From Obrimoposthia wandeli (Eukaryota): a DNA stretch of 64,000 bases. The notes under the pieces are model-generated. The model was not told where the DNA came from. It was given only the letters and a program-made list of their open reading frames with translations, and made no database searches. The stretch's first letter is position 1; each line of letters opens with the position of its first letter. The stretch covers positions 1,178,001 through 1,242,000 of the forward strand of contig CDROCS010000288.1 of the NCBI GenBank assembly GCA_977020255.1, given 5' to 3'. The position numbers and the translations under genes are program-made. This document shows positions 1,522 through 55,700 of this stretch, one piece after another.

Positions 1522-2919
1522 CTAGGTGAGCACCTGACTGTTCTTGAAGGTCATTCTGGAGGTCATTCCAACATTAGTGACACAAGAATGGTTGTCAGTC
1601 CTGTCACAGTGTCGAATCTTCTTGAGAACGTTGCGGAACTTCTTAGAGATGACAAGGGTGCAGATGGGGTTCATGGCGTTATTGACGTAGGCGATAAGCT
1701 GGGCAGCCGGGAACGCGTACAAATTGAGCCAATGAATGACGACGGCACTGCTGGTGACCGCCGCCGAGTTGATGGGGTCGTGTAGGAAGAGGGTGGATGA
1801 GTCGCGGCGGCGTTGTTGGCGTTGTTGTGTGTTGTCGGCTGACAGCATGGAAGCGCTGTTGGCGGGAGAATCACGATAGAGGAAGTCAGCGGCGATGTTG
1901 GCGGCATGGTAGGGTAGCCAGAAGACTGCGAATAGGGCGGTGAGGATCATGAGCAGCTTGCTGATACGCTGGCGCGAGCTGTTGATGTTGCGGAGTGTGC
2001 TGCCATTTTTGCCACCTCCCGACCTGCGACTTCCGGCGGCTGCAGTGGACGTAGAGGAGGTCGTTGTGGTGAGACTGTGCTGCTGGTGCATGTGCTGAAA
2101 AACAGCTGTACTGCGTCTGAGGTGCAGACCCACCTTGGAGTACAGTACTAACATAAACGAGAGTGGTAGCAGATAAAAGAGAAAGAAGATGGCCAGCGTG
2201 AAGATCTGCTTGTGGTTGCTGTTGTTGTTCCAGGTCTCAGCACATAGGTTGTGCACAAGTCCGGCCTCGCTGTCACGACTCACCTGCTTGACCTCGTGTG
2301 CGGACAAAAGCGGTGCAGTGATGAGGAAGGACAGCACCCAGATGGCAACCACCCAGCCGGAGAGATGTCGCGCCTGGAATCGACTGTAGTTGAAGCCACG
2401 GCCGACAATGACGATGTATCGCTCGATACATATGCTAGTCAGGGTGAGGATGCTGACGCCAACTGTGGTGCCCTGGATGGTGCGTGTGACCTTGCAGAGC
2501 GGGCTTCCGAACCGCCAGTCGGGCTGCACAATGGAGGCGATGTTGAAGGGCTCGCACAGCAGGAACACCAGCAGGTCCGAGCAGGCCAGGTTCAGCAGGA
2601 ACACGTGTGATATGGTGCGCATCGACCGAAACAGCACGACGCACAGAATAACACAGACGTTGCCGGTAACACCAACAAGGAAGAGCAGCACAAGCACAAT
2701 CAACTGGAATACCTGAAAGTGTGTGATCCGAAGAATTTCGCGTCCAATGGAGGCACACAGCGCTGCGGACAAGCCGCGACAGTATTCCAGGATATAAGGG
2801 TTGGGATCCAAGGACGGTGACGACAAATAGCTGGAGTTGGCTGCAGTCACTGACGACGACGACAAGTTTGACTGGCTCATTTTGCAGCACCATTTGTTCA
2901 GCTCCACCAGTGAGTTCAT
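1522..2919 (-). CDS. Class A (rhodopsin-like) GPCR, neuropeptide-receptor-like (orexin/allatotropin, NPFF/SIFamide, QRFP neighbourhood); uninterrupted ORF of ~465 aa from the first ATG
   Basis: Seven hydrophobic segments with GN (TM1), NLACSDLL (TM2), WRFGSPLCK, ERY (TM3), W (TM4), ECL2 Cys (LCAETW), FxxWLP (TM6), NNAMNP (TM7) and helix 8 SKKFR. The ORF track starts at GTG 2949; the first ATG is at 2919 and the next at 2880. An acceptor-like ttcttctcacag lies just upstream, suggesting a 5' UTR intron. The ligand class is inferred from motif resemblance only. Confidence 0.93.
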   Translation of the reverse strand: MNSLVELNKWCCKMSQSNLSSSSVTAANSSYLSSPSLDPNPYILEYCRGLSAALCASIGREILRITHFQVFQLIVLVLLFLVGVTGNVCVILCVVLFRSMRTISHVFLLNLACSDLLVFLLCEPFNIASIVQPDWRFGSPLCKVTRTIQGTTVGVSILTLTSICIERYIVIVGRGFNYSRFQARHLSGWVVAIWVLSFLITAPLLSAHEVKQVSRDSEAGLVHNLCAETWNNNSNHKQIFTLAIFFLFYLLPLSFMLVLYSKVGLHLRRSTAVFQHMHQQHSLTTTTSSTSTAAAGSRRSGGGKNGSTLRNINSSRQRISKLLMILTALFAVFWLPYHAANIAADFLYRDSPANSASMLSADNTQQRQQRRRDSSTLFLHDPINSAAVTSSAVVIHWLNLYAFPAAQLIAYVNNAMNPICTLVISKKFRNVLKKIRHCDRTDNHSCVTNVGMTSRMTFKNSQVLT

Positions 2920-3299
2920 ATTGCTCTCTGGTGGGAACACGACTAGCACAGCTGTGAGAAGAAATAATGGCTCAATAATGACCAGCTACTGCTTGTAGGA
3001 AAAAACATAGCAGCCAATAGTATGCGACTTTTTCTAAGAGAGACTTTTTATTTGTTGACTTAGATAGCATATATCTATATACTTGATCTGTTTTTCTTTC
3101 CACAAGCCGACTGTACAAATTAACACTGCTAATATCATATACACTATATGATAAAAACGTTATAACCCTGAAATCTCATTAAATCAACTAATGTATTTGA
3201 ATAATTTAACATGTTAAAATTAAAATATGTTTAACACTGGTGTCTCGCATTTTCGTTTATTTACTGCAGTGGTGTTATAAGTTTAAAAATATTAAAAGT

Positions 3300-4190: not shown

Positions 4191-4280
4191 AGTAGGTGGA
4201 TGGGTCCGGTCTAATCCTCTAAATAAGGAAGGGGGGTGTACCCCTGAACTTTAAAACAGTGCATGTGTATTCTTCCATTA
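4191..4280 (+). repeat. Left TIR of Maverick copy 1
   Basis: Matches the reverse complement of 13529-13607 and the sequence at 20630-20720. Confidence 0.85.
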
Positions 4281-8240: not shown

Positions 8241-8452
8241 AAAGGATTACTTTCATCTTAAGATATATAAATTAATATGAAGTTTTAAGAAGCATACATT
8301 TAATGAAATTTATAATGTTCAGCTAGTGTGTGTAAATTTTATTAGAAAAAGTAAATCAAGCAAACATCAAAAGCTAGAGGATTTAAACGTAAACAGAAGC
8401 AAAATATTGCTATAAACAAACGTAACAAAGTTGAAGAAACAATATTTGACAA

Positions 8453-9010
8453 ATGAGTGACGTCAAAACTGAATTATGTATCTTTGATAAATCACTTCCA
8501 CAATTTGTTGTAAAAACTGCTTCCTTTAAAGAAATATTTCCAGTTAACTCAGTTACAGGAACCACCTTAACCGATTTAGAAGTTAATAGTAGTGGTTCCA
8601 ACAGTGATTATTTAGATTTGAATGATACTTTGCTTTATGTACAACTAAAAGTAACAAATCGAGATTATACTAATTTAGCGGAAAATGCAAATGTAAACCT
8701 ATTAAATAATTCTTTAATTATTTATTTAATGATGCCATTATTACTCTTAATAATGTTAAGATTAAAGGTGGGAATTCTTACTATGCTCATAAAGCTTTCA
8801 ATGAAAGTATATTGAATTGTATTACTGATACTTAAAATACTAATTTTGCAAAAATTGATTTTGATAAAACAGCTCCAACTCGCATAGAAATATGTGTGGG
8901 TCTATGAGAATAAACTTCTCTGAACAACCGAACTATTTAATTCGTGGTGTTGATGTACATCTTCGTTTGAAACGTAATAAATTGATTTTATCTTTGTTAA
9001 GCACATATTT
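8453..9010 (+). pseudogene. Maverick major capsid protein (double jelly-roll), N-terminal remnant
   Basis: ELCIFDKSLPQ, YLDLNDTLLYVQLKV and FSEQPNYLIRGVDVHLRLKRN resemble conserved Polinton MCP segments (LDLF..P.Q; LDL..T.LYV; Q..LL.NGVD.RL.L.R); truncated. Confidence 0.75.
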
Positions 9011-9049: not shown

Positions 9050-11846
9050 AAAAAACAACTAAACAAATATATCAAATAAAGAAAACCGTCTAAATCCGAA
9101 AGTTTCAATAAGCCAGGCTAATGTTTTTTTTCACCCGAATCCACTTTTCGTCATTACTACTCAAAGCTGTTTTAGTTGACTTATGAGAATACAGTTATTC
9201 CACTCTTGAAACAAATCTAGTTTGCCTGACACTTTCAATACACCTGGTATCATATACTTTCCTGTAGGATCATATGTAAAATTGTTTCTTCCTACACCCT
9301 TTGCTCTCGCTTTCATCCTTAAATTTTCCGATAATATCCATTAAACTCATATAGTGTAAAGGATGATTTAAGGGATTTTTATGGGTATCAAGCAAGTTAT
9401 CCCTAAACATTTCTGGTATTAATTAATTTTGAAAACTAACATTTTTACATTCCAAGAAGAAAGAGAGTCCGTGTACCCAGCAGTGATGTTGATCTCACAA
9501 TTAAATTCCTGACAATATTTCTCTAATTCTATATATTGCAGCTCGTACAATTCTGAGTTTAGAAATGTCTAAAACCGTTTGACCTATATAACTCGGTCGA
9601 TTGAGACAAATACTCTGTTTTCCTAATAAATATGCTCCCAAGTTATCTGCAATTGTAAAATTACGCTTGAAGTTGTACTTGCTAGTATATATTATTAGTT
9701 TACGGTCATCGTTGCAAAACCGTAGATAAATACGTTTCCGCAAGTCTTCTACAGTTTTTCCAAAGAGACTATTACTTTTTAACTTGTAAAAATCCTGATC
9801 GAATTTGCTAGTGACCAAATTACGTTTTTCATGAATTCTTCTAAATGTCGTCTTTAAGCACAAAACTTTAACTAAATCTCATAGCCCCGATGAATTCGAG
9901 TGACTTTCGCTCCTAATTTTAAGTAGAATTTAAGAAGTCGCCAATGCACCACATAATTTAACTTCTGTTCATGAATTAACAATAATTTCTTAACTTTTGA
10001 ATAAGTTGATTATTGATGATCAGGAGCCACTGGAAGATCATCTAATTTATCGTGCACATTAGGAGGGATTGTTAAATGGACATCAATCAAATAACTGACA
10101 TTTGATGAAACTGTATCAACAGCAGCCAAATCTGTTATCAACTTATTCAACTCTTCCACATCAAACCCCCACGAAAGGTTCACATGTGGTAGAGGATAAA
10201 TAAGTGTCCACTTATACAAATTATTAATGTCAATATACATAATCTCCGTGTATTGACTTTTGACAATATGATGTTAGTTAACAAAAGTCATTTCACTCTT
10301 AATAACAAAGATATTGAGAGTTTTTGATGCAGTTTTCCATGAATGATCAAGTAAACTAAAGAAATGTCTAACTAGAAATGTCTAAAAAGATCTAACCCAT
10401 ACTCTGATAAAGACTTTACACGAAAGGACGCAAACACATCAGTTAAAAAAACAAATGTCTAACTTCATATAATAAAGTATATTCTCTGTGAGATTTCGAC
10501 AATTTATCTTCCAAAATGTACGAGCCTCATTAAAGTTTTGAAGACTTACATACTCAAATTCACTTATGGGCAGGATTTCTGTTTTATTTTGTAAATTTGC
10601 AGATAATCTTTAAATCTTAAATTGCATAATTCAGTATATGCAGTTAAAAATAAATATTTCTCTGAATTTTGAGGTATACACGATAATTCATATGAAGTTA
10701 ATGTTCCCAACGCATATTTAAGTATATGTTACAAATTCCATTGAGATTTATGAAACATGATGGGAATGCAAGGTTTTTAGGGAGTCGTGCAAAGCAAAAA
10801 TTGATTCAAAATCAGCATATACCTTGAATTCAACGGGTATGCAATTTGCCTAATCACTGAATTTACTATTTTTTTTATTTAGACATACTGTATAGTGTAT
10901 TGTCATCAGAATTATGTGTACATAATGTCAAAATTTTGCTATGAGAGAGCTTGTATCTGAATCCATGTAAACTTATATGACACAACTTACATCTTATCCT
11001 TACCGGTAAGGCACCATTATCTAAATTTAGAAGACGTTCTAATTTGAGAATTCAAGCATAATGAAATTCATTGTTGAGCTCGAGCAAAATTAAATTAACT
11101 AGGTTCTCCTCATTTTTTTCTTCTTTAATTTACGTCTGTAAGAGTATTTTAAAAAATTTATAATAATACAATCCATTTAAAATGGGGCATATTTACTGTC
11201 ACACTCTTAGTGCTCAGTAATTACAGCCCTTTTAAGGATGGCCAACACATTATACAGTAAGCAAAGGTTATCACTGTTTTGTACGTTAACAATGGAATGT
11301 GAGAGTTAAAGAGATCTAGGTGAAATAATGTATGAACACCCTGAAAGATAAATAATATCAGTAAACTTTGTTAAAACAAAGATAACATTGTAAATTCTAA
11401 CTATAGCCCATCCACTATTTAACTCGCTATAATTAGTAATTTTTTAATTAAGTTTCTTCCAATCTCAGTTACAAAGTTATTGTAAAAAACAGTAGTTTTA
11501 CATAAAATTACCCCAGTTTTTTATCCTCTTTGATATTGTAAACTGCATTTTTGCACAAAACTGAATCTTAGCCTGACCTAATTTAGTCACTTCTGATTTT
11601 AAAATATTCTCAATATTGAAATGTTCACCTACGTTCATTAAGTTTTTATTTCTCATGGGCACCTTAACTATAAAGTATTTGTAATTTAGCGGATACTCAA
11701 TAGTAGCACTGTTTTTCCTACGATTTTTGGTGGGGCCTTATTAAAAAATTGGCCTCAACCATTTCTACCTACCCTCGTCGATAAACCTCACCCTAATTGA
11801 ATTGGCCATTCACTTGTTGACGATATTAATATCGCTGGTGTTGATG
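9050..11846 (-). pseudogene. Protein-primed family B DNA polymerase (pPolB) with N-terminal terminal-protein region, decayed
   Basis: VYADFESI (ExoI), YIDINNLY (motif A), YKLKSNSLFGKTVE (motif B), C-terminal IGKFKDE; many frameshifts and stops. Confidence 0.92.
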
Positions 11847-11896
11847 CTGATTACCTATTTAATTTATCTATTTTTAAAATCATAACAAATAATTAC

Positions 11897-12572
11897 TTCT
11901 AAAATCCAAAGAAGAATATCCAAATGTCAGTGCAGCTTGTTGGGTAAGAAAGTTTTCTTCATCAATGGCATCCATCCAGCTGTCATCAGTCAGATGGATA
12001 TGGGATTGGCCGATTCCATTTAATCAGCAGTTGTTGCTTTACTGAATTGCAGGCAGCTTCATCTCAAACTCTGATTTGATCCATCCAGTCGTAGTTTGAG
12101 AGTTGAGTTTATGGCTCCAGAGCAGTGGTCTTGTCCTCAATCTGCTTGGGTAATAACATCCTCCCACTCATTGTTGGTAAGTTGAGTGGATGATACGGCT
12201 GCAGGCATAGAAACTGGAGAAGCGACACACGTGGTGATTTCCGTACCAAAAGCAGTTGTTGGCTCGAATCTAGAGCTGGAACATTTGAAGAATTGTGCAC
12301 CGAATGGATGATGGTCTACATCTTGTTGTTGGCTATGAAACTGGAGAGATGGGCCTGATGTTCAGCGAAGAACACCGGATACTCCTTGTTCTGCAAAACA
12401 GACATACATAATATACCTGTCCATAAAACCTTATCCGATAGTAAGCAGACATGGAATTATGGCAGGTTTCTCCTCCTTGTGGAACCAAAGCACCACATTA
12501 TGCTGGGAACAAGTGACAAAAGTCTATAAAAAATTAAAATCGAAGTTTTAAACATACAAGTATCCTACCATA
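11897..12572 (-). pseudogene. Spliced leader exons upstream of pPolB in copy 1 (ATG micro-exon, CxxC/His exon, acidic W..DF repeats)
   Basis: Homologous to 27552-28210 of copy 2. ACTATG|gtagga donor; a 50-nt intron at 11896-11847 joins in frame to PIQLG.GLS of pPolB. Confidence 0.6.
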
Positions 12573-13528: not shown

Positions 13529-13607
13529 ATTTCACACATGCACGATTTTAAAGGACATGGGTACCCTTCTTATGAGGTGTGGATTAGATCAGACACATCC
13601 ACCTACT
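13529..13607 (-). repeat. Right TIR of Maverick copy 1
   Basis: Reverse complement reads AGTAGGTGGATGTGTCTGATCTAATCCACACC...TCCTTTAAAATCGTGCATGTGTG. Confidence 0.88.
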
Positions 13608-22044: not shown

Positions 22045-22275
22045 TTACTGTGATTTGTCCTCCAATGGCGCATTCTTTTATACTAATTTCTAACAAAAAT
22101 ATGAATCACATTGGTTAATATAACAAAAGCATTCAATTTGATTGGACTAAATTTGATTGGAAGAGATATATCATCCAATTATAATAGGTTTGCAAGATAA
22201 TTACAAGAAACGTGCAATAAAAAAGCAGTTTCAAACATATATAAAGAAGATTTTACAGAATACAATTTTAGTCTA
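22045..22275. promoter_or_regulatory. Candidate bidirectional promoter
   Basis: Lies between divergent ORFs; TATA-like GTATAAAAG on the minus strand (~22074-22082), TATATAAAG on the plus strand (~22238-22246), and several ATTGG/CCAAT boxes between them. Confidence 0.45.
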
Positions 22276-22731
22276 ATGAAACTCGTAAATATAAATTATA
22301 AAGGTAGAACAGAAGATGATGTTTCGTACTTACCATTCAATAAATGGAAGCCGAGACAATATGTGGAAAAGGTTGACAATTTCACAGTTGTTATTTTTGA
22401 AATGAAGAAAATACAAAGAAGCATACCCTATTTTAAAGCTTTAGTCAAAGCCTCTTCTCGTAAGAGAATGATTATTCTTAAAGCATTTCCATCTTTTGTT
22501 GTAGATGATTTATTGGAAGTTTTGTATAATATAGTTTTGGGTAGAGTAAAAGTTAGAAAACGGAAAAATGTATTAAAGAAATATAGAAAAGCTTTTCTAG
22601 ATATTGTTAATGTAAAAAGTAAAAAAAGGAAACGAAATATTATTCTTAAACAGAATGGTGGTTTCAAAGGGGCTGTTATTCCAGTTGTTGCTTCAATTAT
22701 CAGTAGTATTATAGCTGCGACACGTTCATAA
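22276..22731 (+). CDS. Small basic Maverick core protein (PW-like); the probable start is the internal MKKIQR
   Basis: Basic helical protein ending ILKQNGGFKGAVIPVVASIISSII, matching the recalled Polinton pattern LxQxGGFL..L.P. Confidence 0.7.
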   Translation: MKLVNINYKGRTEDDVSYLPFNKWKPRQYVEKVDNFTVVIFEMKKIQRSIPYFKALVKASSRKRMIILKAFPSFVVDDLLEVLYNIVLGRVKVRKRKNVLKKYRKAFLDIVNVKSKKRKRNIILKQNGGFKGAVIPVVASIISSIIAATRS

Positions 22732-22817
22732 ACAATTATTTATAAAATCAGCTAAAAATATGGGTGCTAACCCTTCTTTATCTAAATTTAAATTTTCTTT
22801 CTATTAAAATTGTTGTA

Positions 22818-23844
22818 ATGGAAAAGATATGGTTCAATCCAAAAGATCCAATTGGCTACACAGGAGTTTCAAAATTATCAAAAAGAACAAAACAAAATTA
22901 CAAGAAAACGCAGAAATGGTTGAGCAACCAGTTAGCCTACAGTCTGAACAAGCCGATGAGAAGAAGGTTTCCAACTAGAGCTTACAAAACCAGCGGTCCT
23001 AATAATTTATGGCAAATGGATTTGATGGAGATGATCCCATATTCTTTTATTAATAAGGGATATCGATATATTTTAACATGTATTGATGTATTTAGCAGGT
23101 TTGCTCGTGTAATTCCAGTTAAAGCAAAGTCTTCAATAGCTATGCTTGAAGCCATTAAAGAAATATTAAAAGAGGACATTCCACAAAATGTGCAAACTGA
23201 TTTAGTAAAAGAATTTTATAATAAGCAAGTTCAATTATTATTTAAACAAAATAATATAAATCACTACTCTGTATTTTCACAGTACAAAGCAGCAGTAGTA
23301 GAAAGATTTAATTGTACTTTGAGAGATCGACTAAAAAAGTATTTCACAAAAGAATGAAATAAAAAATGGGTCCAAGTTTTAACTAAAATAATACATGCAT
23401 ATAATCACTCTGAACATAGAAGTCTCAAGGGAATGAGACCTGTTGATGTTACTAATAAAAACTCTATGGATATTTGGATAGACAGGAATAAAAAAGAAAA
23501 TATTAAAAGAGCTAAATATAAGAAAAACGAATATGTTCGAATTTCTAAAATTAGCTCTACTCCATTTATTAAACATTTTGATGAATTGGAGCGATGAAAT
23601 ATTTTGTATAAGTAAAATTGATCAAAAGAGTAATCCAATAATGTATACTATTAAAGATGCTGACAATAATATCGTTCACAGTAAATTTTATGAGCAAGAA
23701 CTACAAGTAATATCAAATAAACCTAGCGTTTTCCGTATTCAAAAAATATTAAAATCTAAGGGTACAGGTAAACATAAACAATACTTTGTTAAATGGCATG
23801 GTTATTCAGACCCAACTTGGATATCAGCATCTAATATAATATAA
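22818..23844 (+). pseudogene. Maverick integrase (rve DDE plus C-terminal chromodomain), disrupted
   Basis: WQMDL, LTCIDVFSR, VQTD..KEF, KAAVVERFN, HAYNHS.HR..GMRPVDV, YFVKWHGY..PTWI; in-frame stop at 23355-23357 and a frameshift near 23590. Confidence 0.93.
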
Positions 23845-25099: not shown

Positions 25100-27299
25100 A
25101 GCATTTAGGGCGTAGGAAAATACAATCATCATACAAAACCTGTCCCTCGCTTTCATACTTAAATTTCCCGATAATATCCTTTAAACTCATAGAGTGTCAA
25201 TATAATAAAGCATATATTCAAGAAGATTTCGACAATTATTCGCCCAAAATGTACAGGCCTCATTATAGTCTTGAAGACTTACACTTTCAAATTCAGTTAT
25301 GGTGGGATTTCAGTTGTATTTTCTAAATCTGCAAAGGTTTTCGCAAATTTATACGGAAAAATCCCCTTATCGTTAACTGAAGCTGGGAACACTGGCTGTG
25401 TAATTGGCCATGCATTTAAAGATGCTGTTAAATTTTTTAAAGACCCACTCAAAAACTGCAGAGAATCTATGAATCTTAAACTGCAGGATTCAGTAGTATA
25501 TGCAGTTAAAGATAAATATTTCTCTGAAGTTTGAGGTATACATGAAATTTCCCAAGAGCTTAATGTACCCAACGCATATTTAAGTATATGATGCAAATCA
25601 TATCCTTTGAGGTTATGAAACACGATGGAAATTTGTGGTTTTTTAGGGAGACGACGGCCAAGGTTACAGAGGTGGCACGCCGCTCCCAAGTATCGCCCCG
25701 TAACATGATCGTGACCTCTGACTAACTTAGCCTGGATTCCACACAAATAACATAATCTACAAGAATTAAAATTAACCCAGTCTATGCCTCCCATGATCAT
25801 TGCTTGATGAGCATTAAGATCATACCACGGTTTGACAATTGTTGTTCCTAATTCTTCTAATTTTAACATAAAATCTAAAATACAATTTGGACCGGAAAAT
25901 TTATGATACTGTGTAAAATTGAGGCCTAAGAATAATAGTCCTGCCGAAGCCGGTAGGTGAATACTGTCATACTGGTCGTGCAATGCTAGAATTGACTCAA
26001 AATCTGCATACACTCTGAATTCCACGGGTATGCATTTTGCCCAATCCCTGAATTTTAAATCCCTATCCTTAGGCATGCTGAATAGCGTATTGTCATCAGG
26101 ATTCAGTGAACATAATGTCAGATGTTTGCTGTAAAAGAGCTCGGATCGGAATCCATGTAAACATCTATGACTCCACTTACATCTTATCCTAACCGGTAAG
26201 GCTCCATTATCTAAATTTAGAAGACAATCTAAACTGGGAATTGCAGCATAATGGATTTTTTTATTATTTTCAAGAAAAATTAAGTTGACCTGAGTCCCCT
26301 AATTTTTGCTCCTATAAATTACATCTACAAATGGATTTTTTAAAAATTTTTCATCTGTTACATTAACTGGGATATCAGTATTATATTTAAATACATTAAT
26401 ACTCAAGTTATTAAGGTGTTCAAATCTTGATATTGCAGTTAATTTAACAGGATACTGCCGTGATACTGCAATGTTTTAAAAAAATCTCAGTAATTACATC
26501 CCTTTTGAGGATGGCCAACACGCTATACAGAAAGCAAAGATTATCACTATTTTGTACGTTAACAATAGAACGTGAAAGTTGAAGAGATCTAGGTGAAGGA
26601 ATGTATGAACTCCCCGAAAGAAATATAATGTCAGTGAACTTTGTAAGACAAAGCTAACGTCGTGAATTCTAACTAGAGTCCATCCATTACTTAACTCGCT
26701 ATAATTAGCAATTTTTTCATCTAGGTTTCTCCCAATTTCAGTTACAAAATTATCATAGAAAACAGTTGCTTTATGTGAAATTACCCAAGTTTTAGTCTCC
26801 TCATTGACATTTTTAAACTGCACTGTTGCGCAAAATTGAACCTTAGCCTGTCCTAATTTGGTCACCTCTGATTTTAAAAGATTTTCAATATTTGAATCTA
26901 CACCTACGTTTAATAAAATTTCATTTCCTAATGGCACCTTAACTATAACATATTTATTATTTAGGTGATACTCTATAGTAGCACCATTTTCTCTACGTTG
27001 TTTTAGTGGGACCTTATTAAGAAATTGGCCTCGCCTCTTTCTTCCTACAGTCGCTGACAAACCTCCCCCTAATTGAACGGGAAGACAACTATTTATATTA
27101 ACAGTTGAGACAAACGCAGCTGAGGTTGACGGTGCTGCTATTGGTGATGCTGCCGACGTTGAGGCAATCGCAGCTGATGTAGTAGATGTTGCTGTAGTAG
27201 ATGCTGCTGTAGTAAGTGCTGCCGCAGTTGTAGATGCTGCATTTGGAATAGTAGCCGGCATTGCCGATGAAGAAGCGACTGTTGTAGAGGTTGATGCTG
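25100..27299 (-). pseudogene. pPolB with terminal-protein region; ~1.1 kb of the polymerase core is deleted relative to copy 1
   Basis: GWTLVRI, SYIP.P.SL...IVNVQNSDNLCFLYSVLA, VYADFESIL, DHDHVTGRYLGAAC..CN, FHNLKGYDLHHI, RFIDS.QFL, KGIFPY; jumps to IGKFKYE near 25200. Confidence 0.92.
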
Positions 27300-27346
27300 C
27301 TGAAATAAATATATGAAAAAATAAATGTATTTTTCAATATTATTAC

Positions 27347-28210
27347 TTCTAAGACGTGCTAACATCGATGTAGGCACTCGCGATGGGAGAGGCATAGCTG
27401 TCGTAGCGGATGACGACTGTATCACGGTATTTCTTGAATAAAAAATAAAAATAAAGTATATATAATTACAATAATATATATTTAATTTAAAAAAATATAT
27501 ATATATAATTACAATTTTAAAAAATAATCTGAAAATAATAATAAAAAATACCTAATGAAGGCAATCCAATTGTAGCTGGTTGGAAGTCCTCTTCATTGAC
27601 GGAATCCATCCAGCTGTCGTCCGTTAACTCGACGAAATCGGATTCCTCGATGGTCTCCAACCAGGAGTTATCGCTCCACTTAGGCTGCTCCATCTCGAAA
27701 TCTGACTGGGTGATATTTTCCATCCATTCATTGTTTGAGAATTGGGTTGCTGGCGCCAACTCCTCAAAATCTTCTTGGGAGATGTCATTCGTCCACTCAT
27801 TATTAGTCATTTGAGTGGATGGTGCAGCAGCAGAATCAGGAACCGGGAGAGAAGGACCAATAGCAGGACCGTAAAAGGGTTGAACGACTGCAACTGGAAT
27901 TGGAGCAGGAGCTGAAGCGGCTTGCGAATCGCGCACCAATTGCACTATATCCCTCTTTTTGTTGTTGGCCGTTAAACAGGATAGGTGATCTCGATGTTCA
28001 CCGAAGAATTCTCGAAACTTCTCTCAGAAGGGGCAGACGAAGAAGTGAAGCCCGCGAGACTTTGTCCGATAGTAGGCGGACATTATCTCCATGCAGGTCT
28101 CTCCTCCATGCGGAGCCGAAGCACCACAATACGCAGGGAATAGGTTACACGTAATCTGAAATAATAAATATTAATAAAGAAATAATAAATATAGATTCTT
28201 ACCATAGTCA
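27347..28210 (-). pseudogene. Spliced leader exons upstream of pPolB in copy 2
   Basis: ATGACTATG|gtaaga...tttcag (intron ~28201-28156). The large exon encodes C/H-rich VCPF*EK..EHRDH and four W-x3-[IV]-x3-DF repeats. Further introns at 27551-27433 and 27346-27300. Confidence 0.68.
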
Positions 28211-28249
28211 TTATTTCAAATAGTCGGGGATTTAAATGAATAAAGTGTT

Positions 28250-28470
28250 TGCTTTTATACTAAAATTTATGCACACATGCTCTTTTCCTATTGGATGAAA
28301 AATTTGAATTTATTCCTCCACTGAGAAGGATTGTTTATCTGTTATTGGTTGATAAATTTATTTTTAATATTTTTATTCCTCCAATTAAAAGGCTTATTTG
28401 TAATTGAATGAAAAATAGATTTTTTAAATAATGAATTTCTCCAATTAGAAGAATTGTTTATCTACATGTC
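28250..28470 (-). promoter_or_regulatory. Candidate promoter of the spliced leader-pPolB unit
   Basis: TTAGTATAAAAG ~45 nt upstream of the first ATG, preceded by three copies of a (TC)CTCCAATTAGAAG(G)A-like CCAAT-containing repeat. Confidence 0.45.
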
Positions 28471-34859: not shown

Positions 34860-36423
34860 GGGAACGTACTCCTACTAGTCCATATTTAAATCCAGTCTGG
34901 GTTTAAACCGTATCCGTAAAAATACAAAAAATAAATGTTGGAAAATATCAAAACCGCATTGCCACAGTCAGAATTATGGCACAAAGGTCTAACGAGCAAC
35001 ATGCACTGCATTTGTATTCTTCAAAAGATCAGAATTGTTTCTCTAGAAATAATCCCCAAAATACGCTACTTCTATTGAGTTGGCTTTTAATTATCCAAAT
35101 TAAAATTCACAGGAAATGTTTCTATTTTAATTCCTTACTTTTGTCTGAGTGAAAAAGAATAAATTACGTCTTGCAATTAAATTGGCAAAATGATGAAACG
35201 TCTTCGAAAATTGATTTGTTTTATAACGTCGAGCTAATAAAAAAACACTGTTAAGATATGCCTTGTTTTATAAATTTCCCATTATTCTTTATCTTGAATT
35301 CAGAAAATATAAGCGTATCTATTTGGTATTTTGGAAAATGTATAGATGGAATTCAATTTCTGACACTTACATGCTCATCTCCATGTGAGGTCATATAAAT
35401 ATAAAGCAGTGGTCAAAAACGGATACTTACTTACCATTACTTTGATGTTTCATGGCCTTTTATAACATGAGACAATTAACACATTTAGTAACATTATTTA
35501 AATAAAAATGACAAATATCAGTCATAAAATTGACAATAAATTAATTGGGATGGATGCACCTTGCTTGTCATTAAGCAGTTCTTCTACGTTAGGATGTGCT
35601 TCTGATAGTACAACTCTCATGTCATAGCTCTCATCCAATCTATTTTGGTTTTGATGGAAAGAAGAGTGGAAAACGCTGTATTATATTTTTCGGTGGTTGC
35701 AAATTAAATCATCACTTTAAAAGCCATTTTTTGCGATATCGGGATAGGACTGCTACTCATTTCACCATCATTTACGAAATCAATAAACTGATCTTGAATT
35801 TAGTTGTCCTCTGAGAGCAGATTATACAACAAAATGAATTTAAAAAAAGTACAGAAACAAGATAATGTTAAAGACGATGTCGACCATGGTTTGCTTGATT
35901 AACTATGTAAACAATGATATGAATTTTACCTTTATTTATATTCCATGACATCAATATTTCCTGGCGATATTTTAAAAGCGGTTAATATCGAATCAATTTC
36001 CATCGAATAGTCGCCGATTGTTGAATCAATTGATGGTCAGGTAATATCAAAATAAAGGTCATTACATTGTCTTCTTAGTTTTAATAAAAGGGGTTCAGAT
36101 TCTTCTTCTTCTTTGCTATCATTCGATATGACGATGACTTCATTTACCTCTATGTTGTCATTGTGTGTTTCCATTTCTTCATTTACTCCTTCTTTGGAGT
36201 CTGTTTCTTTGTCATTTTCATCCTTTTCATTACTTTCATCTTCATCATCCTCTATACATAATCATCAATATCTACTGGGATGATGTTATACTCATTATAT
36301 TGATTTTTAGTCGTTTTCTTTTTTTCGATATTATTCCCAATTGATATACCTTTCGTTTGTTCATTATTTGTATTATTATTTATTTAAAATTTCTTTTAAT
36401 AAAGACTTAATAAAGATTTACAG

Positions 36424-38418
36424 TTGACAAAGGAATACATCTCAACAATAGAAGATCATATTATAAAAGGTTATTTTAAAAAAATCGATGAGGAAGAAAA
36501 TAAAGATACAAAGTGGCTGATTCCACACTTTTCAGAAATAATAAGAGATAAAGAAACAACAAAAGTTCAGATATTATTTGACGCTGCAGCAAAGTTCCAA
36601 GGAGTTTGTTTAAATGACAAGACAGAAGCTGTACCAAAACTCCGGGAAGATTTATTTGATATATTGTTACGTTTCCGTAAGTTTGAAATTACACTGGCGT
36701 GTGACATATCAGAAATGTATTTATAGGGGTCATTGAAACCAGAAGATCTCCTGTAACACCGACATTTATAGCGTGAAGAAGTGGGGTACGTTTGAACTTA
36801 TGAATATTCTTGATTAGTTTTTGGAATCAAGGCGCCAACGTTCTTGACTCAGTTGATATCACGCGGAAATGTAGAAATTATTCAAGAAGTTTTTCAGAGG
36901 GCAGCCAAATCAGTGCTAAAGTCTACCTATATGAATGATATGAAATAAGTATTGCGCCTGATGGTTGAATTAAAAAACTTTCAGAAAGAGCAGGAATGGG
37001 GTCGTGAAAATGGACAACGAATAACAGATCTGTGTTGGCGTATATATCGGAAGAGTACATAATACAAAATATATAGGTTTGAAGAAACCGAGAATTTGGC
37101 AGCAAAAAAGTTAGATATAAGTTGGCAGTGTAAGGAAGACGTATTTAAATTTAATGTTTATTTACTGAAGTTTGAAAAGATAACAGAAATAAATTTCCTA
37201 GGTTTATTGTCTCGTGTTTCTGATCCAATGGGATTTGTTGGTCCAGTTATTATCCGATACAAGATAACCATGCAAGAGCTTTGGGTATCGGGACTAGAAT
37301 GGGACGAAAACATTTTAGAAGGTATTGACAGATAAGCAAGAAAATGAATCAGACTCTGCAAAGTTTGAGACATTTAATATACCACGATGTTTCATTAGAA
37401 TTACGGGCTCAGATGTAGAAATAAATGTTTTTCTGACGCATCTAAATATGCATATGGTTTGATAGCTTATTTAAGACAGACAAATATTATCAGCCGTTTA
37501 AAATTTGTTGCTACCAAGTTGAAAGTTTCGCCATTAAAAGTTAAAAAGAGCTAATGGCAGCTAAAGTAGGAGTAAAATTGGCGAAGACAATTCCTCGGGC
37601 TCTAGAATTAGATGCGAGGGCTTCTTTTGGTCCGATAGTTTGGACGTTCTCTGCCGGATACGACAACCATGAAAACTGTTCAAACTGTTTGTAGCCAATA
37701 GAGTTGGAAAAATTTAGAGTGAAATAAATATTTGTAATTGGAAATGTCCCAACGAAGGAGAACCTAGCTGATATGTTGTCTCGAGATGAGCCGGCAGATG
37801 TTTTGGCGAAATGAAAAATGTGGTGTAAAGGCCCGAAGTTCTTAATGCAGTGCGCTGATCAATGGTCAAAGAGTGCGGAACTTAGATCAAGATATCAGAA
37901 GAAAGACATATAAATAAAGTTTTTTTTGACAATTTCTGTAAGATACAATCTTAGAGGGTCTGTGTGAAACACAAGTTGTTTTAAGCTAGAGACATATTCA
38001 TGTCTTATACGCCTACGACGTGTAAGAGCTTGGAGTTCAAGATTAATACTCAATTGTAGACTCAACTGAGATCAGCAAACAGTGGGAGAGTTATCTGTAA
38101 ATGAGTTAAACGAGGTCGAGATCGAGCTAATAAGGAACAGCCAGAAAGAGTTTTTTAGTTATGAAGTAAGATTGAGAGACAAACTTAAGCCAATTCCAAA
38201 AACAAGTGATTTACAGAGGTTGAATCCTATCTTAGATGATGATGGGGTTTGGAGAAGTAATGCAAGAATCTTTCATGCGGACTGTTTAGGTTATGATGTT
38301 TGATTCCCGATTATTGTGAGCGAGAAGATCAGTTTGGCAAGGTTAATTATAAAATAAATTAACGAGAAGTTGAAGCATTACCTTGATATGCAGCATGTTC
38401 TAAAGGAGGTATGCGAAT
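36424..38418 (+). pseudogene. BEL/Pao LTR-retrotransposon pol remnant (RT, RNase H/DUF, start of the integrase region)
   Basis: WLIPHF..IRDKETTKVQILFDAAAK..GVCLND, LFDILLRFR..I.L.CDISEMYL, DPMGFVGP.IIR.KI.MQELW.SGLEWDE, FSDASKYAYG, LNPILDDDGV.RS..RI; many stops. Confidence 0.9.
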
Positions 38419-38949
38419 ATTCACCTACTGGCTTCGACAGGAATACTATTCTTTGACCTCAATATAACCCAGTATCAGGAATTTCCAGGTTTAAATTTTA
38501 TGTAAAAATTAGAGAAATTAGGAACAATTGTCAAACCGTGGTATAATCTTAATGCTCATCAGGCAATGATCATGTCTGGCGTAAACTGGGTTAATTTTAA
38601 TTCTAGTAGATATAGTTATTTGTGTGGTACCCAGTCTAAGTTAGTCAGAGATCTTGATTAAATTACGGGGCGATACCTGGGAACTGTGTGTAATCTTTGT
38701 AACCTTGACTGTCGACTCCATAAAGAACCACGCATTCCCATCGTGTTTTAAAATCTCAAAGGATATGATTTACATCATAAAATTAAATAGGCGTTGGGTA
38801 CATAAGGCTCATGGGAAATTTCTTGAATACCTCAAACTTCAGATAAATATTTATCTTTAACTGCATATACTAAATTCTACAGTTTAAAATTGATGGATTA
38901 TCTACAGTTTTTGAATGGGTCTTTAAAAAAATTAACTGAATCTTTAAAT
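38419..38949 (+). pseudogene. Isolated Maverick pPolB exonuclease-region fragment (third copy)
   Basis: Collinear with the reverse complement of ~25420-25960 (IHL.AS.G.LF, VKPWYNLNAHQAM, TGRYLG..CNLCN, LKGYDLH, PQTS.KYLSLTAY). Confidence 0.85.
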
Positions 38950-49143: not shown

Positions 49144-49304
49144 CTAGATCACTTGACCCCCCCTAAAGGGTGTCACACCATAAAGATGTCTTGCCACACC
49201 ATAAGAGTATATGTTGCCTCACCTCTGGTGAGGCAACATATACCCTTATGGTGTGACACCCTTTAGGGGAGGGGAGGGGGAGGGGGAGGGGTCAAGTGAT
49301 CTAG
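49144..49304. other. Subterminal hairpin with a G-rich bulge (left; the mirror copy is at 58152-58335)
   Basis: CTAGATCACTTGACCCC...ATATGTTGCCTCACC-TCT-GGTGAGGCAACATAT...GGGGTCAAGTGATCTAG; G4-like (G4-5A)n at ~49266-49291. Confidence 0.92.
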
Positions 49305-49371
49305 TCTCCACCCTTCTTTGATATACCACTAAAGGGTTGTGGTCGACCATAATTCAAAGGGTCAAGTGGTC

Positions 49372-49470
49372 TAGTCTCCACCCTTCTTTTTGTGATATAG
49401 TCTCCACCCTTCTTTTTGTGATCTAGTCTCCACCCTTCTTTTTGTGGTCTAGTCTCCACCCTTCTTTTTG
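49372..49470. repeat. Tandem ~24-bp repeat TAGTCTCCACCCTTCTTTTTG(T/G)G x4 (mirrored at ~57986-58085)
   Basis: Direct reading. Confidence 0.88.
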
Positions 49471-51329
49471 GCTAACCACTATGATCGTCCATAATTCAAA
49501 GGATCAAGGTCAATTTTGACTTGAAACTTTGAAGGTATAATTAAGATCATGTGAAAGTTCGCACTTAAAGGTTAAGGAATGTATTACGTAATAATACACA
49601 TACTATTCTATGTGAAAATCAAGGCTAAAGTTCACTCTTATCAGTTAAGGAATGTGGTTTTTAACACACACACTATTCTATGTGAAAGTTTAGATCAAAA
49701 TTTTTTTCCTAGGCTCATACATTTATAGAATTATGATAAAATTTCTTTAAATAACTTAAATTATATATTAAAATAAAAAATAAAATAAGAAAGAAGTCAG
49801 AGAATAATACAAAATTAAACATATTTAATATGTAATTTCATAATATCATCTTCAAACTTAAGTGAATAACATTTGTAAAGTAAGAAAATCCATTCTTTAT
49901 ACATTCTTTCCGATTTAACAACTAAGTTACAACGGAATTAATAGAAAAAGAAAAAAAACAAAAAAACAACAACACTAAGTTTAACGCTATGAATGAAAAT
50001 TAGTAAAATATTAATTTATTTGAATATTTGAATGAAGGTTTGAAAAAAAAAATGAGAGTTAGATTGAATGTAAATGAATACAAGTATGAATGCAAATGAA
50101 TGCAAATACAAGTAAGTGTCTTAGTAAGTGAATGTAATTTAAAAATAAGAGTGTCGATAGTTTGATTGAATGCGAGTGTAATTTAGACTATAAGTAAATT
50201 AAAATAGAGTTTTCGTATGAATAAAGTTATGTTAAGTTACAGTAAATTAATAACAAGTAAGCAACTATAAGAAGCAGTGATATTGAAGTATGTTAAAAAT
50301 TAGAACGACTAAGTTATGGCAAGATTAATAGAAAACAACACCAAATTTGACAGTATGAATGAAAATTAGTAAAATATTAATGTATTTAAATGTATTTGAA
50401 TGATAGTTTGAATAAATTACAGTTAGATTGAATGTAAATTAATGCAAGTATGAATGCAGGGTCAAGTACAAGTAAGAAAGAATACGCAATATGCAAGTAC
50501 GAATGTCAATTATGAATGAAAATTAGTAAATATATTAATGAATTTGAATGTTAGTTTAAATATATGAGAGTTAGAATGAATGTAAGTGAATGCAAGTATG
50601 AATGTAAGTGAATGCAAATATGAATGCAAATACAAGTAAGAATCTTTGCAAGTGAATCTTAAACTACAAGTGAGTACTAGCTAATTATTAAATTAATACT
50701 ATCAATCAATGAAGATGATGTAAGTTATGATGAAGTTATAATAATTAAGATGCGAACTTTCATATTTTCACATAGTTTACTTCCATATTAAAGTTAACCT
50801 TTCATACATACTCATGCAATTAAATAATTAAAATGTCTTATCTCGTTTGATAAAATTCCTTAATTAAAATATTTTAAATAATTAGATAAATTTAAATTCT
50901 TTATTTTTAAATAACTTGATTATAAATTTATATTCGTAAATATAATTGAAATTATCAATATTCATTTCTCTTTTTAACTATTCGAAAATATATTTATATA
51001 CAAATTTAGTAAATTAACTCAACAAACAATTTTATTTTTTTTAATTACTTGATATTTTTGTCATTGTCTTATTAATATAATATGAATATTCAATTTATTT
51101 CTTCAAAAATTCATTTTTATATGTTAAATAATATTTCTTTATCACATTATTGTGGTTTTTATCAAGTGATTTTAACCTTAAACTATAAAAAATATTTTAA
51201 TTATAAAGTTAGTAGCTGTATTCCGTCGACTGCATATAATATAAATTTTAAATATAAAGTACTATTAAATGTATTCTTTCAAATGGTAAAAGTTCTTTCG
51301 AATTATTTAATTTTGTTTACATTCGAAAA

Positions 51330-52440
51330 TTGACTTGTAAATATAATATTATAATTTTGCATATATTCACTTTAATATGTTGTAAGTTATTACTTTAATA
51401 TAATTTACAACCTAAACTTCAAGTAATTTACTTAATAATCTTAATATTAATGATTTGTTCGATAAATTGACTTGTAAACATAAAATATTTAAAACAAACT
51501 TCAAGTAGTTTACATATTAATCATAATTTAAGGATTTGTACAATAAATTGACTTGTAAACATAATTTATTGTGCATATTCATTTAATATATTGTAAGTTA
51601 ATACTGTAATATTTCATTACATGAAATGTAATTCATAGTTTACTGTCGTTTACAATAAATTGACTTGTAAACATAATTTATTTTGCATATATTTAGTTTA
51701 ATACGTTGTAAATTATTACTGTAATATTCCATTACATAAAAAAGTAATTGATATTTTACTGTCGTTTACTATAAATTGACTTGTAAACATAATATATTTA
51801 TGCATATATTAACTTTAATATGTTGTAACTTATTACTTTAATATCATTTTCAACAAAAACTTCAAGTAGTTTACTTATTAATCATAAGTTTAATGTTTTG
51901 TATCTTAAATTGACTTGTAAACATAATTTAATATGTTGTAAGTTATTACTTTAATATTCCATACCATAAAATTAATTGATATTTTACTATCGTTTACTAT
52001 AAATTTACTTGTAAACATAATATATTTATTCATATATTCACTTTAATACGTGTAAGTTATTACTTTATTATAATTTACAACAAAAACTTCAATTCAGTTT
52101 AATATATTGCAAGTTAATACTCTAATATTTCATTACATAAAAAGTCATTGATAGTTTACTATCGTTTACAATAAATTTATTTGTAAACATACGTTATTGT
52201 GGTATTTTATCAAGTGATTTTAACCTTAAACTGTAAAAATATTTTAATTATAAAGTTAGTAGCTGTACCTCACCGACTGCATATAATATAAATTTCAAAT
52301 ATAAAGTACTATTAAGTTTATTATTTCAAATAGTAAATGTTTTTTCGAGTTATTTAATTTTGTTTACTAGACATTCGAAAATTGACTTGTAAACATAATA
52401 TAATTTTGCATATATTCACTTTAATATGTTGTAAGTTATT
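51330..52440 (+). repeat. AT-rich satellite, forward polarity (core AAATTGACTTGTAAACATAAT)
   Basis: The core recurs at roughly 80-200-bp intervals within mosaic subunits. Confidence 0.9.
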
Positions 52441-52779
52441 CGAACTTGTGTACTTGTACAAAATTTGTAGATATTTCAATAATTAAAAGCGATATAAAAG
52501 TTAATTATCAAATAATAAATAAAAAATAGTTAAATTAAATCTAATTTATGATGTTGCAATGCTAAATTCTTCTTTAAAACCAATGTTTAACATGAAATAC
52601 TTAAAATCAATGGTTTTTTTTTTTATTTTTTTTATTTTTAAAAGTAACTTTATTTAAACGTATTGGTATATGATTGATATAATACAATACTAAACTAATG
52701 TAAATTTCAGTTATGAGTTGATCAACTATGAATATTTTTAACTTATTTCTTGATTTTTACAACATTTCGAATAGTTTAC

Positions 52780-55700
52780 TTAATAATCATAATATTAATA
52801 AACTATGAATTACTTTTTATGTAATGAAATATTACAGTATTAACTTACAATATATTAAATTGAAAATATGCAAATTATATTATGTTTACAAGTCAATTTA
52901 TTGATCAAATCATTAAAATTATGATTAATAAGTAAATTACTTGAAGTTTTGGTTGTAAATTATATTAAAGTAATAACTTACAACATATTAAATTGAAAAT
53001 ATACCAAAATAAATTATGTTTACAAGTCAATTTATTGTACAAAACATTAAACTTATGTTTAATAAGTAAACTACTTGAAGTTTTTGTTGTAAATTATATT
53101 AAAGTAATAAGTTATAACATATTAAAGTTAATATATGCATAAATATATTATGTTTACAAGTCAATTTATAGTAAACGACAGTAAAATATCAATTACTTTT
53201 TATGTAAAGGAATATTACAGTAATAATTTACAACGTATTAAATGAATATGCACAATAAATTATGTTTACAAGTTAATTTATTGATCAAATCATTAAAATT
53301 ATGTTTAATAAGTAAACTACTTGAAGTTTTTGTTGTAAATTATATTAAAGTAATAACTTACAATATTTTAAACTGAATATATGCAACAACAAAAAATATT
53401 ATGTTTACAGGTCAATTTATTGTACAAAACATTAAACTTATGTTTAATAAGTAAACTACTTGAAGTTTTTGTTGAAAATTATATTAAAGTAATAACTTAC
53501 AACATATTAAAGTGAATATATGCATAAATATATTATGTTTACAAGTCAATTTATTGTAAACGATAGTAAACTATCAATTACTTTTTATGTAATGTAATAT
53601 TACAGTAATAACTTACAACGTATTAAAGTGATATATGTATAAATATATTATGATTACAAGTAAATTTATTGTACAAAACATTAAACTTATGATTAATAAG
53701 TAAACTACTTGAAGTTTTTGTAGTAAATTATATTACAGTAATAACTTACAACATTTTAAACTGTATATATGCAACAACAAATAAATATTGTAGTTTACAA
53801 GTAAATTACTTGAAGTTTTTGTTGTAAATTATATTAAAGTAATAACTTACAACATATTAAATTGAAAATATACCAAAATAAATTATGTTTACAAGTCAAT
53901 TTATTAAAAAAAACATTAAACTTATGATTAATAAGTAAACTACTTGAAGTTTTTGTTGAAAATTATATTAAAGTAATAAGTTACAACATATTAAAGTTAA
54001 TATATGCATAAATATTTTATGTTTACAAGTAAATTTATAGTAAACGACAGTAAAATATCAATTACTTTTTATGTAATGGAATATTACAGTAATAACTTAC
54101 AACGTATTAAAGTGATATATGTATAAATATATTATGATTACAAGTAAATTTATTGTACAAAACATTAAACTTATGATTAATAAGTAAACTACTTGAAGTT
54201 TTTGTTGAAAATTATATTAAAGTAATAACTTACAATATTTTAAACTGAATATATGCAACAACAAAAAATATTATGTTTACAGGGGTCAATTTACAACGTA
54301 TTAAACTAAATATATGCAAAATAAATTATGTTTACAAGTCAATTTATTGTAAACGACAGTAAACTTTGAATTACTTTTTATGTAATGAAATATTACAGTA
54401 TTAACTTACAGTATATTAAATTGAATATATGCATAAATATATTATGTTTACAAGTCAATTTTCGAATGTCTAGTAAACAAAATTAAATAACTCGAAAAAA
54501 CATTTACTATTTGAAATAATAAACTTAATAGTACTTTATATTTGAAATTTATATTATATGCAGTCGGTGAGGTACAGCTACTAACTTTATAATTAAAATA
54601 TTTTTACAGTTTAAGGTTAAAATCACTTGATAAAATACCACAATAACGTATGTTTACAAATAAATTTATTGTAAACGATAGTAAACTATCAATGACTTTT
54701 TATGTAATGAAATATTAGAGTATTAACTTACAATATATTAAACTGAATTGAAGTTTTTGTTGTAAATTATAATAAAGTAATAACTTACACGTATTAAAGT
54801 GAATATATGAATAAATATATTATGTTTACAAGTAAATTTATAGTAAACGATAGTAAAATATCAATTAATTTTATGGTATGGAATATTAAAGTAATAACTT
54901 ACAACATATTAAATTATGTTTACAAGTCAATTTATGATACAAAACATTAAACTTATGATTAATAAGTAAACTACTTGAAGTTTTTGTTGAAAATTATATT
55001 AAAGTAATAAGTTATAACATATTAAAGTTAATATATGCATAAATATATTATGTTTACAAGTCAATTTATAGTAAACGACAGTAAAATATCAATTACTTTT
55101 TATGTAAAGGAATATTACAGTAATAATTTACAACGTATTAAATGAATATGCACAATAAATTATGTTTACAAGTTAATTTATTGATCAAATCATTAAAATT
55201 ATGATTATTAAGTAAAGTACTTGAAGTTGTTTGTTGTAAATTATATTACAGTAATAACTTACAACATATTAAATTGAAAATATACAAAAAAATATACTAT
55301 GTTTACAAGTCAATGTATTGTACAAAACATTAATATTATGATTTATTAAGTAAACTACATGAAGTTTTTGTAGTAAATTATATTACAGTAATAACTTACA
55401 ACATTTTAAACTGTATATATGCAACAACAAATAAATATTGTAGTTTACAAGTAAATAACTTGAAGTTTTTGTTGTAAATTATATTAAAGTAATAACTTAC
55501 AACATATTAAATTGAAAATATACCAAAATAAATTATGTTTACAAGTCAATTTATTAAAAAAAACATTAAACTTATGATTAATAAGTAAACTACTTGAAGT
55601 TTTTGTTGAAAATTATATTAAAGTAATAAGTTACAACATATTAAAGTTAATATATGCATAAATATTTTATGTTTACAAGTAAATTTATAGTAAACGACAG

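Follow-up and report, generated by a model that had tools for sequence, protein, structure and literature searches.

A predicted spliced leader with a Cys/His module at the 5′ end of a Polinton polymerase gene in Obrimoposthia wandeli

The window analyzed here, the whole 64,000-nucleotide (nt) stretch of Obrimoposthia wandeli DNA from positions 1,178,001 to 1,242,000 of contig CDROCS010000288.1 (GenBank assembly GCA_977020255.1), is AT-rich and harbors two decayed copies of a Polinton/Maverick element that are approximately 80% alike. In copy 2, the broken 5′ end of the polymerase gene (pPolB) probably encoded a leader from which three AT-rich GT-AG segments would be spliced, giving rise to a leader-terminal protein (TP)-vOTU-polymerase polyprotein whose leader would be cut at a glycine motif. 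This reading is based on the anatomy of the gene, the homology of a Cys/His module in the leader to unbroken pPolB open reading frames (ORFs), the fold of the TP, and the presence of frame-restoring introns in relatives. Judged from the DNA, the splicing of the leader by the host spliceosome is very probable.

Anatomy of the polymerase gene in the two copies

The pPolB gene of copy 2, like its counterpart in copy 1, is placed on the minus strand. A TATA box (TATAAAA, 28253..28259) was found 48 nt 5′ of an ATG at 28211, and five of six relatives presented a TATAWA word 36-54 nt before their first ATG, with a chance probability of 0.14-0.36 in each of the five that were shuffled. The ATG opens a 9-nt exon 1 (28203..28211), followed by intron 1 (28156..28202), a GT-AG segment of 47 nt, in phase 0 and with 87% AT, whose position is common to copy 1. 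The unspliced frame of the Cys/His region contains a stop and no upstream ATG, which implies that exon 1 supplies the start; in the relatives, the start lies 2-8 residues ahead of the first Cys. Exon 2 (27552-28155, 604 nt, 51% AT) carries the Cys/His module (27952..28152), composed of a C-C-H-C and a C-C-H-H set corresponding to two predicted zinc sites, and its only stop, at 28026, breaks this module. Further downstream, the same exon presented four acidic repeats of the form N/D/S-x-W-x3-I/V-x2-3-D/E-F (27574..27807), with 23 D+E against 1 K+R in 76 residues.

Intron 2 (27433..27551, 119 nt, 93% AT) has the top-ranked donor and acceptor in the scoring described below, and its junction is one base off. 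Exon 3 (27347..27432), 86 nt long in copy 2, with 50% AT and missing from copy 1, lies between this intron and the equally AT-rich intron 3 (27300..27346, 47 nt, phase 1, 87% AT), whose donor context is the same as that at 11896 of copy 1. The removal of intron 3 is in frame, and the reading continues through the linker, the QLGGG motif and the TP. A single 252-nt intron (27551-27300) would also be in frame, and exon 3 could therefore be a skipped cassette. The AT content of the introns was 87-93%, against 50-52% in the exons. The linker (27100..27297), with S, T or A at 52 of its 66 residues and much shorter in copy 1, is followed by the Q-L-G-G-G motif (27061..27075), a candidate clan CE protease site, a basic patch (27031-27042), the TP domain with a predicted little-finger/PAD fold (26647..27000), the vOTU region (26200..26646), interrupted by frameshifts and a stop and with its Cys and His motifs legible in different frames, and the exonuclease region (25297..26298), which holds an endonuclease-VII/HNH insert (PF02945, E 0.0027, below the cut-off) and matched PF03175 (E 4.9e-8). 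The comparison of the copies revealed that the polymerase core beyond approximately 25200 is missing from copy 2. This whole arrangement, from the TATA box to the glycine motif, had been proposed in a first-pass annotation of the window, and on re-reading it was recovered at the same coordinates, including the in-frame junction at 27346-27300 and the one-base offset at 27551-27433 that results from the 86-nt length of exon 3.

In copy 1, intron 1 (12524..12568, 45 nt) is placed as in copy 2 and its junction is one base off, the Cys/His module (12313..12518) is spread over two frames (E 5.1e-7 and 7e-4), the last intron (11847..11896, 50 nt, phase 1) is in frame, and the glycine motif (11785..11799) has a stop within it. 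This copy lacks the TATA box, intron 2 and exon 3, and its last acceptor is weak (rank 6 of 46). The shared position of the first intron and the in-frame 50-nt intron at 11896-11847, both reported earlier, were confirmed, and the off-frame first junction and the stop in the motif have to be added to that description. The GT and AG were retained at the first and last introns of both copies, with intron interiors 55-62% alike, against 80% for the TP.

The Cys/His module and its linkage to the polymerase

A search with the exonuclease ORF retrieved 250 longer pPolB homologs, of which 52, all from ENA or JGI records, were clearly closer (35-48% identity over the exonuclease region); named animal relatives were 29-30% identical. 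The TP search added 36 matches, two of them spurious. No match to the TP query was found among the longer proteins or in viral_contigs, where scans with the exonuclease and with alignment A1 found distant pPolBs only (24-32% identity) and a motif scan found one unrelated locus.

In 24 of the 73 non-redundant close TP proteins, several of them full length, the N-terminal Cys/His module is in one ORF with the TP, in some cases as a tandem pair, and no stop was found between leader and TP in the relatives. The joining of the leader to pPolB, first proposed from the window alone, is supported by this shared ORF, and the leader thus belongs to the predicted pPolB protein. A module profile built from relatives only and searched against the window in six frames matched exon 2 of copy 2 (E 6.6e-11) and nothing else besides exon 2 of the two copies, and by BLASTP the copy 2 module matched the N-terminus of the relative P0003. 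The homology starts at codon 3 of exon 2, where the relatives place their start Met. Moreover, in three metagenome loci (L027, L047 and L054) the TATA box, the ATG, the module, a variable linker, the glycine motif and the TP follow one another in one unbroken frame. The module profile, when searched against the longer proteins, produced 7 matches, all of them TP-bearing.

The module is characterized by two conserved sets, C-x6-7-C-x4-5-H-x4-7-C and C-x2-3-C-x11-16-H-x2-H. The model of the module of an intact relative (pLDDT 81.6) presented a helix, a two-strand hairpin and a helix with the His pair, and its second half has a strand-strand-helix order with Cys40, a second Cys, His58 and His61. 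The structural neighbors in the atlas were C2H2 proteins, with TM below 0.5, and the best solved match had Z 2.6. No Pfam family matched more than one of 20 members (best E 0.023), the profiles of the PF00096 clan included, and no match was found in PDB sequences (best E 0.77), PDB folds, BFVD folds or atlas features, blank results that do not establish a new fold. In more distant pPolBs, the place of the leader is occupied by SAP or Rho_N modules or by arrays of classical C2H2 fingers, and for this reason a swappable nucleic-acid-binding leader is the plain reading; the module would bind zinc and DNA. Three pPolB loci of the close clade (L051, L074 and L093) presented neither module nor glycine motif by eye and begin with tiny exons; in L051 and L074, a duplicated unit of mini-exon plus intron was also observed.

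The remaining parts of the leader are far less widespread. The acidic Trp repeats were present in the two copies of the window only (partly kept in copy 1) and in 0 of the relatives compared, and the S/T/A linker was likewise conserved in 0 of these relatives beyond the window family. The linkers of P0007, P0020, P0135 and P0152 contain acidic D-F-x-V-V stretches, which we take to resemble Atg8-binding motifs.

Splice sites and introns in the relatives

The splice sites were scored with a matrix trained on 15 introns, all from relatives. Among the 47 GT sites of copy 2, the donors took ranks 1, 2 and 3, and among its 64 AG sites the acceptors took ranks 1, 3 and 4 (intron 1: donor 2/47, acceptor 3/64); as these sites had first been chosen by similar cues, the ranks mark them as the best sites and are not an independent probability.

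A motif scan of metagenome contigs yielded 110 loci, for 80 of which flanks were fetched, and 19 were assigned to the close clade by their TP and vOTU profile scores. L099 has five clean leader introns of 42-46 nt, these first five alone being counted since the chain search over-spliced AT-rich coding DNA; the first one lies inside the module and shifts the frame, and its removal restores the profile match. In L043, of which L088 is a 99% twin, three introns were identified (45, 53 and 49 nt, all in phase 1), and the two exons that they enclose (117 and 84 nt) are symmetric. Downstream of the leader, 9 of the 19 close loci share a phase-1 intron of 42-43 nt, located at the same Gly codon of the TP/vOTU joint, and a second intron of 42-48 nt just 5′ of the vOTU His was found in all six loci of sufficient length; these nine loci are 75-98% alike and represent one lineage. 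Beyond the second intron, the frame stays open to the locus end, over 714 codons in L100 and 375 in L070, and L043, L088 and L099 are also open to their locus ends, which places such introns in intact-looking genes. Both GT-AG ends and restoration of the frame on removal, as expected of U2-type introns, were found for these predicted introns. Taken together, these loci support the view that the short introns of the pPolB genes of this clade are real and were kept in otherwise open frames.

The leader is intronless in L027, L047 and L054, intron positions vary by lineage and many relatives have none. Hence the earlier claim of an intron-dependent polymerase applies to some lineages and fails for those three loci, and the introns are lineage-specific, host-type additions that are dispensable for the architecture. 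In a quick TP tree of 126 columns, the intron-bearing rows required four state changes, two of them forced by strong branches, which suggests repeated intron gain; the window TP grouped with the intronless P0003 (support 92, not among the strong branches). Eight database proteins (P0027, P0122, P0125, P0126, P0131, P0132, P0137 and P0138) start, end or have an insert at intron positions of the DNA loci and are probably gene calls that ran into introns.

Additional information on copy 2 came from Logan contigs, which are contigs from one sample and not RNA. In three runs of this sample (X1, X3 and X4), 34,705-55,292 records were placed each, and 11 in a fourth run, indicating a family with many and diverse members in the organism sampled. 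Read by hand, 97-99% of the contig depth departs from copy 2 at the intron 2 acceptor, towards an in-phase junction. At the module stop, less than 2% of the mean depth of the bin remains, and on either side the contigs run out of the window with loose ends, suggesting a small deletion in copy 2. Both lesions, the off-frame intron 2 junction and the module stop, look private to copy 2. The ATG and the remaining GT/AG pairs were untouched among the 40 differences listed, 164 further rows standing outside that list.

The TP, the vOTU and the glycine motif

The TP model had pLDDT 84.2, and the best eight of 48,161 chains were Y-family polymerases (Z 6.0-7.0), the first being 4IR1 (Z 7.0, rmsd 2.4, 86 aligned); these Z scores are below the caution level of 8 of the tool, yet consistent. 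In the model, the TP adopts a little-finger/PAD fold with a Ser/Tyr between helix 2 and the last strand, where the relatives share a near-invariant Ser-Gly-Trp. According to the available text of 10.1101/2024.03.18.585575, this fold is a signature of PRD1-like TPs. In BFVD, the TP matched adintovirus and MELD-virus PolB, the best match being a C2H2-bearing protein of Drosophila-associated adintovirus 2 (E 1.1e-4). The vOTU Cys276 and His383 are invariant in alignment A1, are recognized by motif and are broken in both window copies. The PF02945 insert was above the cut-off in P0003 and P0011 and slightly below it in P0010, P0019 and the window, and PF03175 matched P0003 and not P0010, P0011 or P0019, which bears on the question of adintovirus Alpha versus Beta PolB.

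The glycine motif of the relatives was tallied within 60 residues of the TP, with expectations from shuffles. The form Q-x-G-(G-x or x-G/A) was present in 14 of 24 module-bearing relatives (0.98 expected) and in 6 of the 23 others with sufficient upstream sequence (0.46 expected), an enrichment somewhat flattered by the definition of the motif on the same relatives. The relaxed [QM] form occurred in 15/24 and 11/23, respectively, and elsewhere in pPolB in 5 of 522 windows. At P4, the most frequent residue was Q (27 of 79 sites). In copy 2, L-G-G-G fits the adenovirus (M/L/I) form, and the conserved register, Q-x-G-G or Q-x-G-x-G, lies one residue upstream. The stretch around the motif is low-confidence and unstructured in the model; in such an exposed stretch, the motif would fit a mavirus-type clan CE site, as the mavirus protease cuts at GG|X and GX|G according to the part of PMC6048507 available.

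Proposed mechanism and alternative explanations

In the proposed mechanism, a Pol II transcript starting from the TATA box would be spliced to encode one chain, in the order module, acidic repeats, linker, motif, basic patch, TP, vOTU and polymerase. The module would help to bind the element ends, where the TP would prime, and after priming the vOTU would release the polymerase from the TP. The maturation protease of the element would then trim the leader off the DNA-bound TP at Q-x-G-G|x or Q-x-G-x|G, in a manner comparable to the conversion of the precursor pTP to TP in adenovirus. The parts of this scheme differ in strength. That the module binds zinc and DNA and helps to place TP-pPolB on the element ends is slightly favored, given the C2H2, Rho_N or SAP modules that distant pPolBs carry there. 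By analogy, there is about an even chance that the vOTU frees the polymerase, leaving the leader-TP on the DNA ends, and that the leader is trimmed by a clan CE protease; the vOTU cut itself is a hypothesis of 10.1101/2024.03.18.585575, in the text available. The acidic Trp repeats might, at a guess, form a family-specific binding patch for a basic partner, either of the host or of the element. A wider and rather doubtful view, put forward tentatively, is that of an unnamed and widespread Polinton clade with a pTP-like polymerase proprotein, in which a new two-zinc module would be trimmed by the virion protease at Q-x-G-x-G and repeated gains of 42-53-nt host-type introns would tie replication to host splicing and hide the elements from ORF surveys.

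Besides the definition of the motif on the same relatives, several observations weigh against the proposed reading. The evidence for splicing comes from DNA alone, both copies are damaged as read (copy 2 has its module interrupted by a stop and its second junction off-frame, copy 1 its first junction off-frame and its motif interrupted by a stop), and the intron positions of the window are common to its two copies only and not to the relatives examined. As to the cut, not even the relaxed [QM] motif is present in 9 of the 24 module-bearing relatives, and of 20 distant pPolBs that have a long leader only 3 carry the motif. The adenovirus (M/L/I) consensus, in which the LGGG of copy 2 had first been read as a protease site, is not enriched in the module-bearing relatives (3/24, 1.03 expected), the conserved motif being Q-x-G-G or Q-x-G-x-G instead (14/24). 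Finally, the basic patch, placed by eye, lies behind the motif in part of the relatives and ahead of it in the rest, so that a cut would not always leave the patch on the TP.

Some of these observations would also be expected if the spliced leader stays uncut, the glycine motif being a hinge or a remnant and the zinc module a permanent DNA-binding accessory on the TP. The relatives without the motif would be explained, as would the N-terminal C2H2, Rho_N or SAP modules without it in most distant pPolBs (all but the 3 of 20). This alternative is rather unlikely, since the pattern of a Q at constant spacing from a following G-G or G-x-G exceeds the shuffles 14-fold and is rare in the rest of pPolB, the motif matches the mavirus protease sites, and the loci without the module also lack the motif. 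It is improbable, in turn, that the leader is cut by the vOTU of the polymerase itself, with the di-glycine read like a ubiquitin C-terminus. OTU enzymes cleave after di-glycine, the catalytic Cys and His are in the same chain and the window motif contains G-G, but in many motifs of the family a bulky residue (Y, F, L or S) separates the two glycines of G-x-G, an arrangement suited to a clan CE protease and not to a ubiquitin-type site, and the available text of 10.1101/2024.03.18.585575 puts the vOTU cleavage between TP and vOTU.

Another possibility is that TP-pPolB is mainly produced without the leader, through an internal start or an alternative splice, and that the upstream exons encode a minor product or a protein of their own. 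The leaderless form could draw on a Met at 27261, in frame with the linker, and on TATA-like words within the AT-rich intron 2, L051, L074 and L093 encode pPolB without the module, and five relatives were called from a conserved Met in the middle of the module. However, Met 27261 is missing from copy 1, the TATA-like words lie in an AT run 200-250 nt off, and in L027, L047 and L054 the TATA box stands ahead of the ATG of the module and the ORF continues to the TP, which makes this explanation quite improbable. Least credible of all is that the putative introns are AT-rich insertions or decay products that were never spliced. The many stops, frameshifts and deletions in both copies, and the off-frame state of two of the five junctions as read, would be in line with decay, but copies about 20% apart keep GT/AG at the same two introns with interiors only 55-62% alike, and long-frame relatives have similar 42-53-nt segments at fixed codons, with lengths that shift or close the frame. 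The spliced leader-TP-vOTU-polymerase chain with a cleavable leader thus remains the preferred reading.

Element setting and neighboring features

Copy 1 is bounded by terminal inverted repeats at 4191-4268 and 13534-13607 (75% over 80 nt), and by eye four of six bases in its flanks agree for a 6-bp target-site duplication. In copy 2, a left terminal repeat was found at about 20630, and the right end was not found. Stops, frameshifts and large internal deletions occur in both copies, which are dead. Copy 2 also carries an RVE integrase (22746-23357, PF00665, E 2.8e-11) with a chromodomain beside it (23482-23844). Capsid proteins, the packaging ATPase and the clan CE protease had zero Pfam matches in the ORFs and two read-through stretches scanned, both copies being internally deleted and the fetched loci of relatives stopping short of that module; the stretch 8450-8815 is presumably capsid-like, judging by its look. 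An ORF at 22201-22731 (plus strand) resembles hypothetical proteins of Preplasmiviricota and has a C-terminal Q-N-G-G-F with a hydrophobic tail, a pX-like layout; its nearest Pfam-bearing atlas cluster was Adeno_PX at 0.79, which is a lead only.

Two other genes of the element lie 5′ of pPolB. The accessory gene at 31162-29898 (minus strand) of copy 2, with an acidic Trp-rich start and a basic patch at its end, is interrupted by four AT-rich introns (46, 44, 46 and 78 nt), all in phase 0 at GAG|GT; exons 1-3 join in frame and exon 4 is off. From these GAG|GT phase-0 introns, short introns are a habit of the element. A second small upstream gene is common to both copies (29200-28420 and 13110-12670, minus strand), with at least one 40-nt intron candidate (29116-29077) and with about 290 nt missing from copy 1.

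Elsewhere in the window, a third, inverted pPolB fragment (38409-38949, plus strand), 82% identical to copy 2, adjoins Pao/BEL retrotransposon remnants (36400-38300) that include a PF05380 match at 37063-37335. A large foldback-like element (49259-58197) without a long ORF has nested inverted arms, 98-99% identical and more than 2.5 kb in total, that flank AT-rich tandem units of 100-250 nt. An intact, intronless gene for a rhodopsin-family G-protein-coupled receptor (PF00001) was found at 1522-2985 (minus strand), GC-rich amid AT-rich DNA, and marks the host as an animal.

Comparison with known systems

No description of spliced pPolB leaders from Polintons of animals was found in the literature searched, outside which lay most subscription journals, Repbase, supplements and the founding papers of 2006-2007. 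The available portions of PMC11296320, PMC12220804, PMC6431247, 10.64898/2026.10.13.758929 and 10.64898/2026.06.19.733378 contain nothing on spliceosomal pPolB introns.

The window elements resemble Polintons/Mavericks in the RVE integrase with a chromodomain and in the terminal inverted repeats found nearby. Their polymerase is akin to the TP-vOTU-EXO-PALM pPolB of 10.1101/2024.03.18.585575, whose available text coincides in the TP fold, for which 4IR1 was used there, the vOTU Cys/His, the exonuclease and the palm. In contrast to that scheme, the window presents a Cys/His module, a linker and a glycine motif ahead of the TP, as well as spliceosomal-type introns, and the main text of that work has zero occurrences of "intron" or "splic". 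The leader would add a domain of no known family to the scheme. An endonuclease-VII/HNH insert in the exonuclease region is likewise described for pPolB2-type Polintons in the accessible part of PMC10748475, and an OTU domain and a pX-like ORF for adintovirus OTU-PolB in that of PMC8502044; unlike in those groups, the module of the window clade is not a Pfam C2H2 finger.

With regard to introns, vertebrate Mavericks belong to the same class of elements, and their core genes are described as intronless, a reported rather than a diagnostic trait, in the available text of PMC8097293, where intact elements are defined by intronless ORFs; in the window, pPolB departs from this by its predicted introns. 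Under such a definition, spliced lineages would be filed as fossils or as fragmented, and the several database proteins that begin or end at intron positions would be cases of this fragmentation. In nematode Mavericks, the core is also intronless and introns occur in cargo genes only, as far as the text of 10.1101/2022.07.12.499685 could be accessed. Dinoflagellate Maverick/Polinton-like elements do have spliceosomal introns, mostly introner insertions judged to be post-integration in the part of PMC11957031 available, whereas plain AT-rich introns of 42-53 nt, at fixed codons common to related elements, are found here in animal DNA. A single clade with both intron-bearing and intronless relatives would offer a small natural system for the study of intron gain in a virus-like element.

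Finally, a parallel to the proposed maturation is found in adenovirus, in which pol and pTP are expressed from a short spliced first exon and the protease also accepts the G-x|G form. The leader would represent a concrete candidate substrate for the maturation protease of Polintons. As described in the available text of PMC7998265, the adenovirus TP precursor is cut by a clan CE protease, whereas in the window the TP is fused to the polymerase and the P4 residue is mostly Q.

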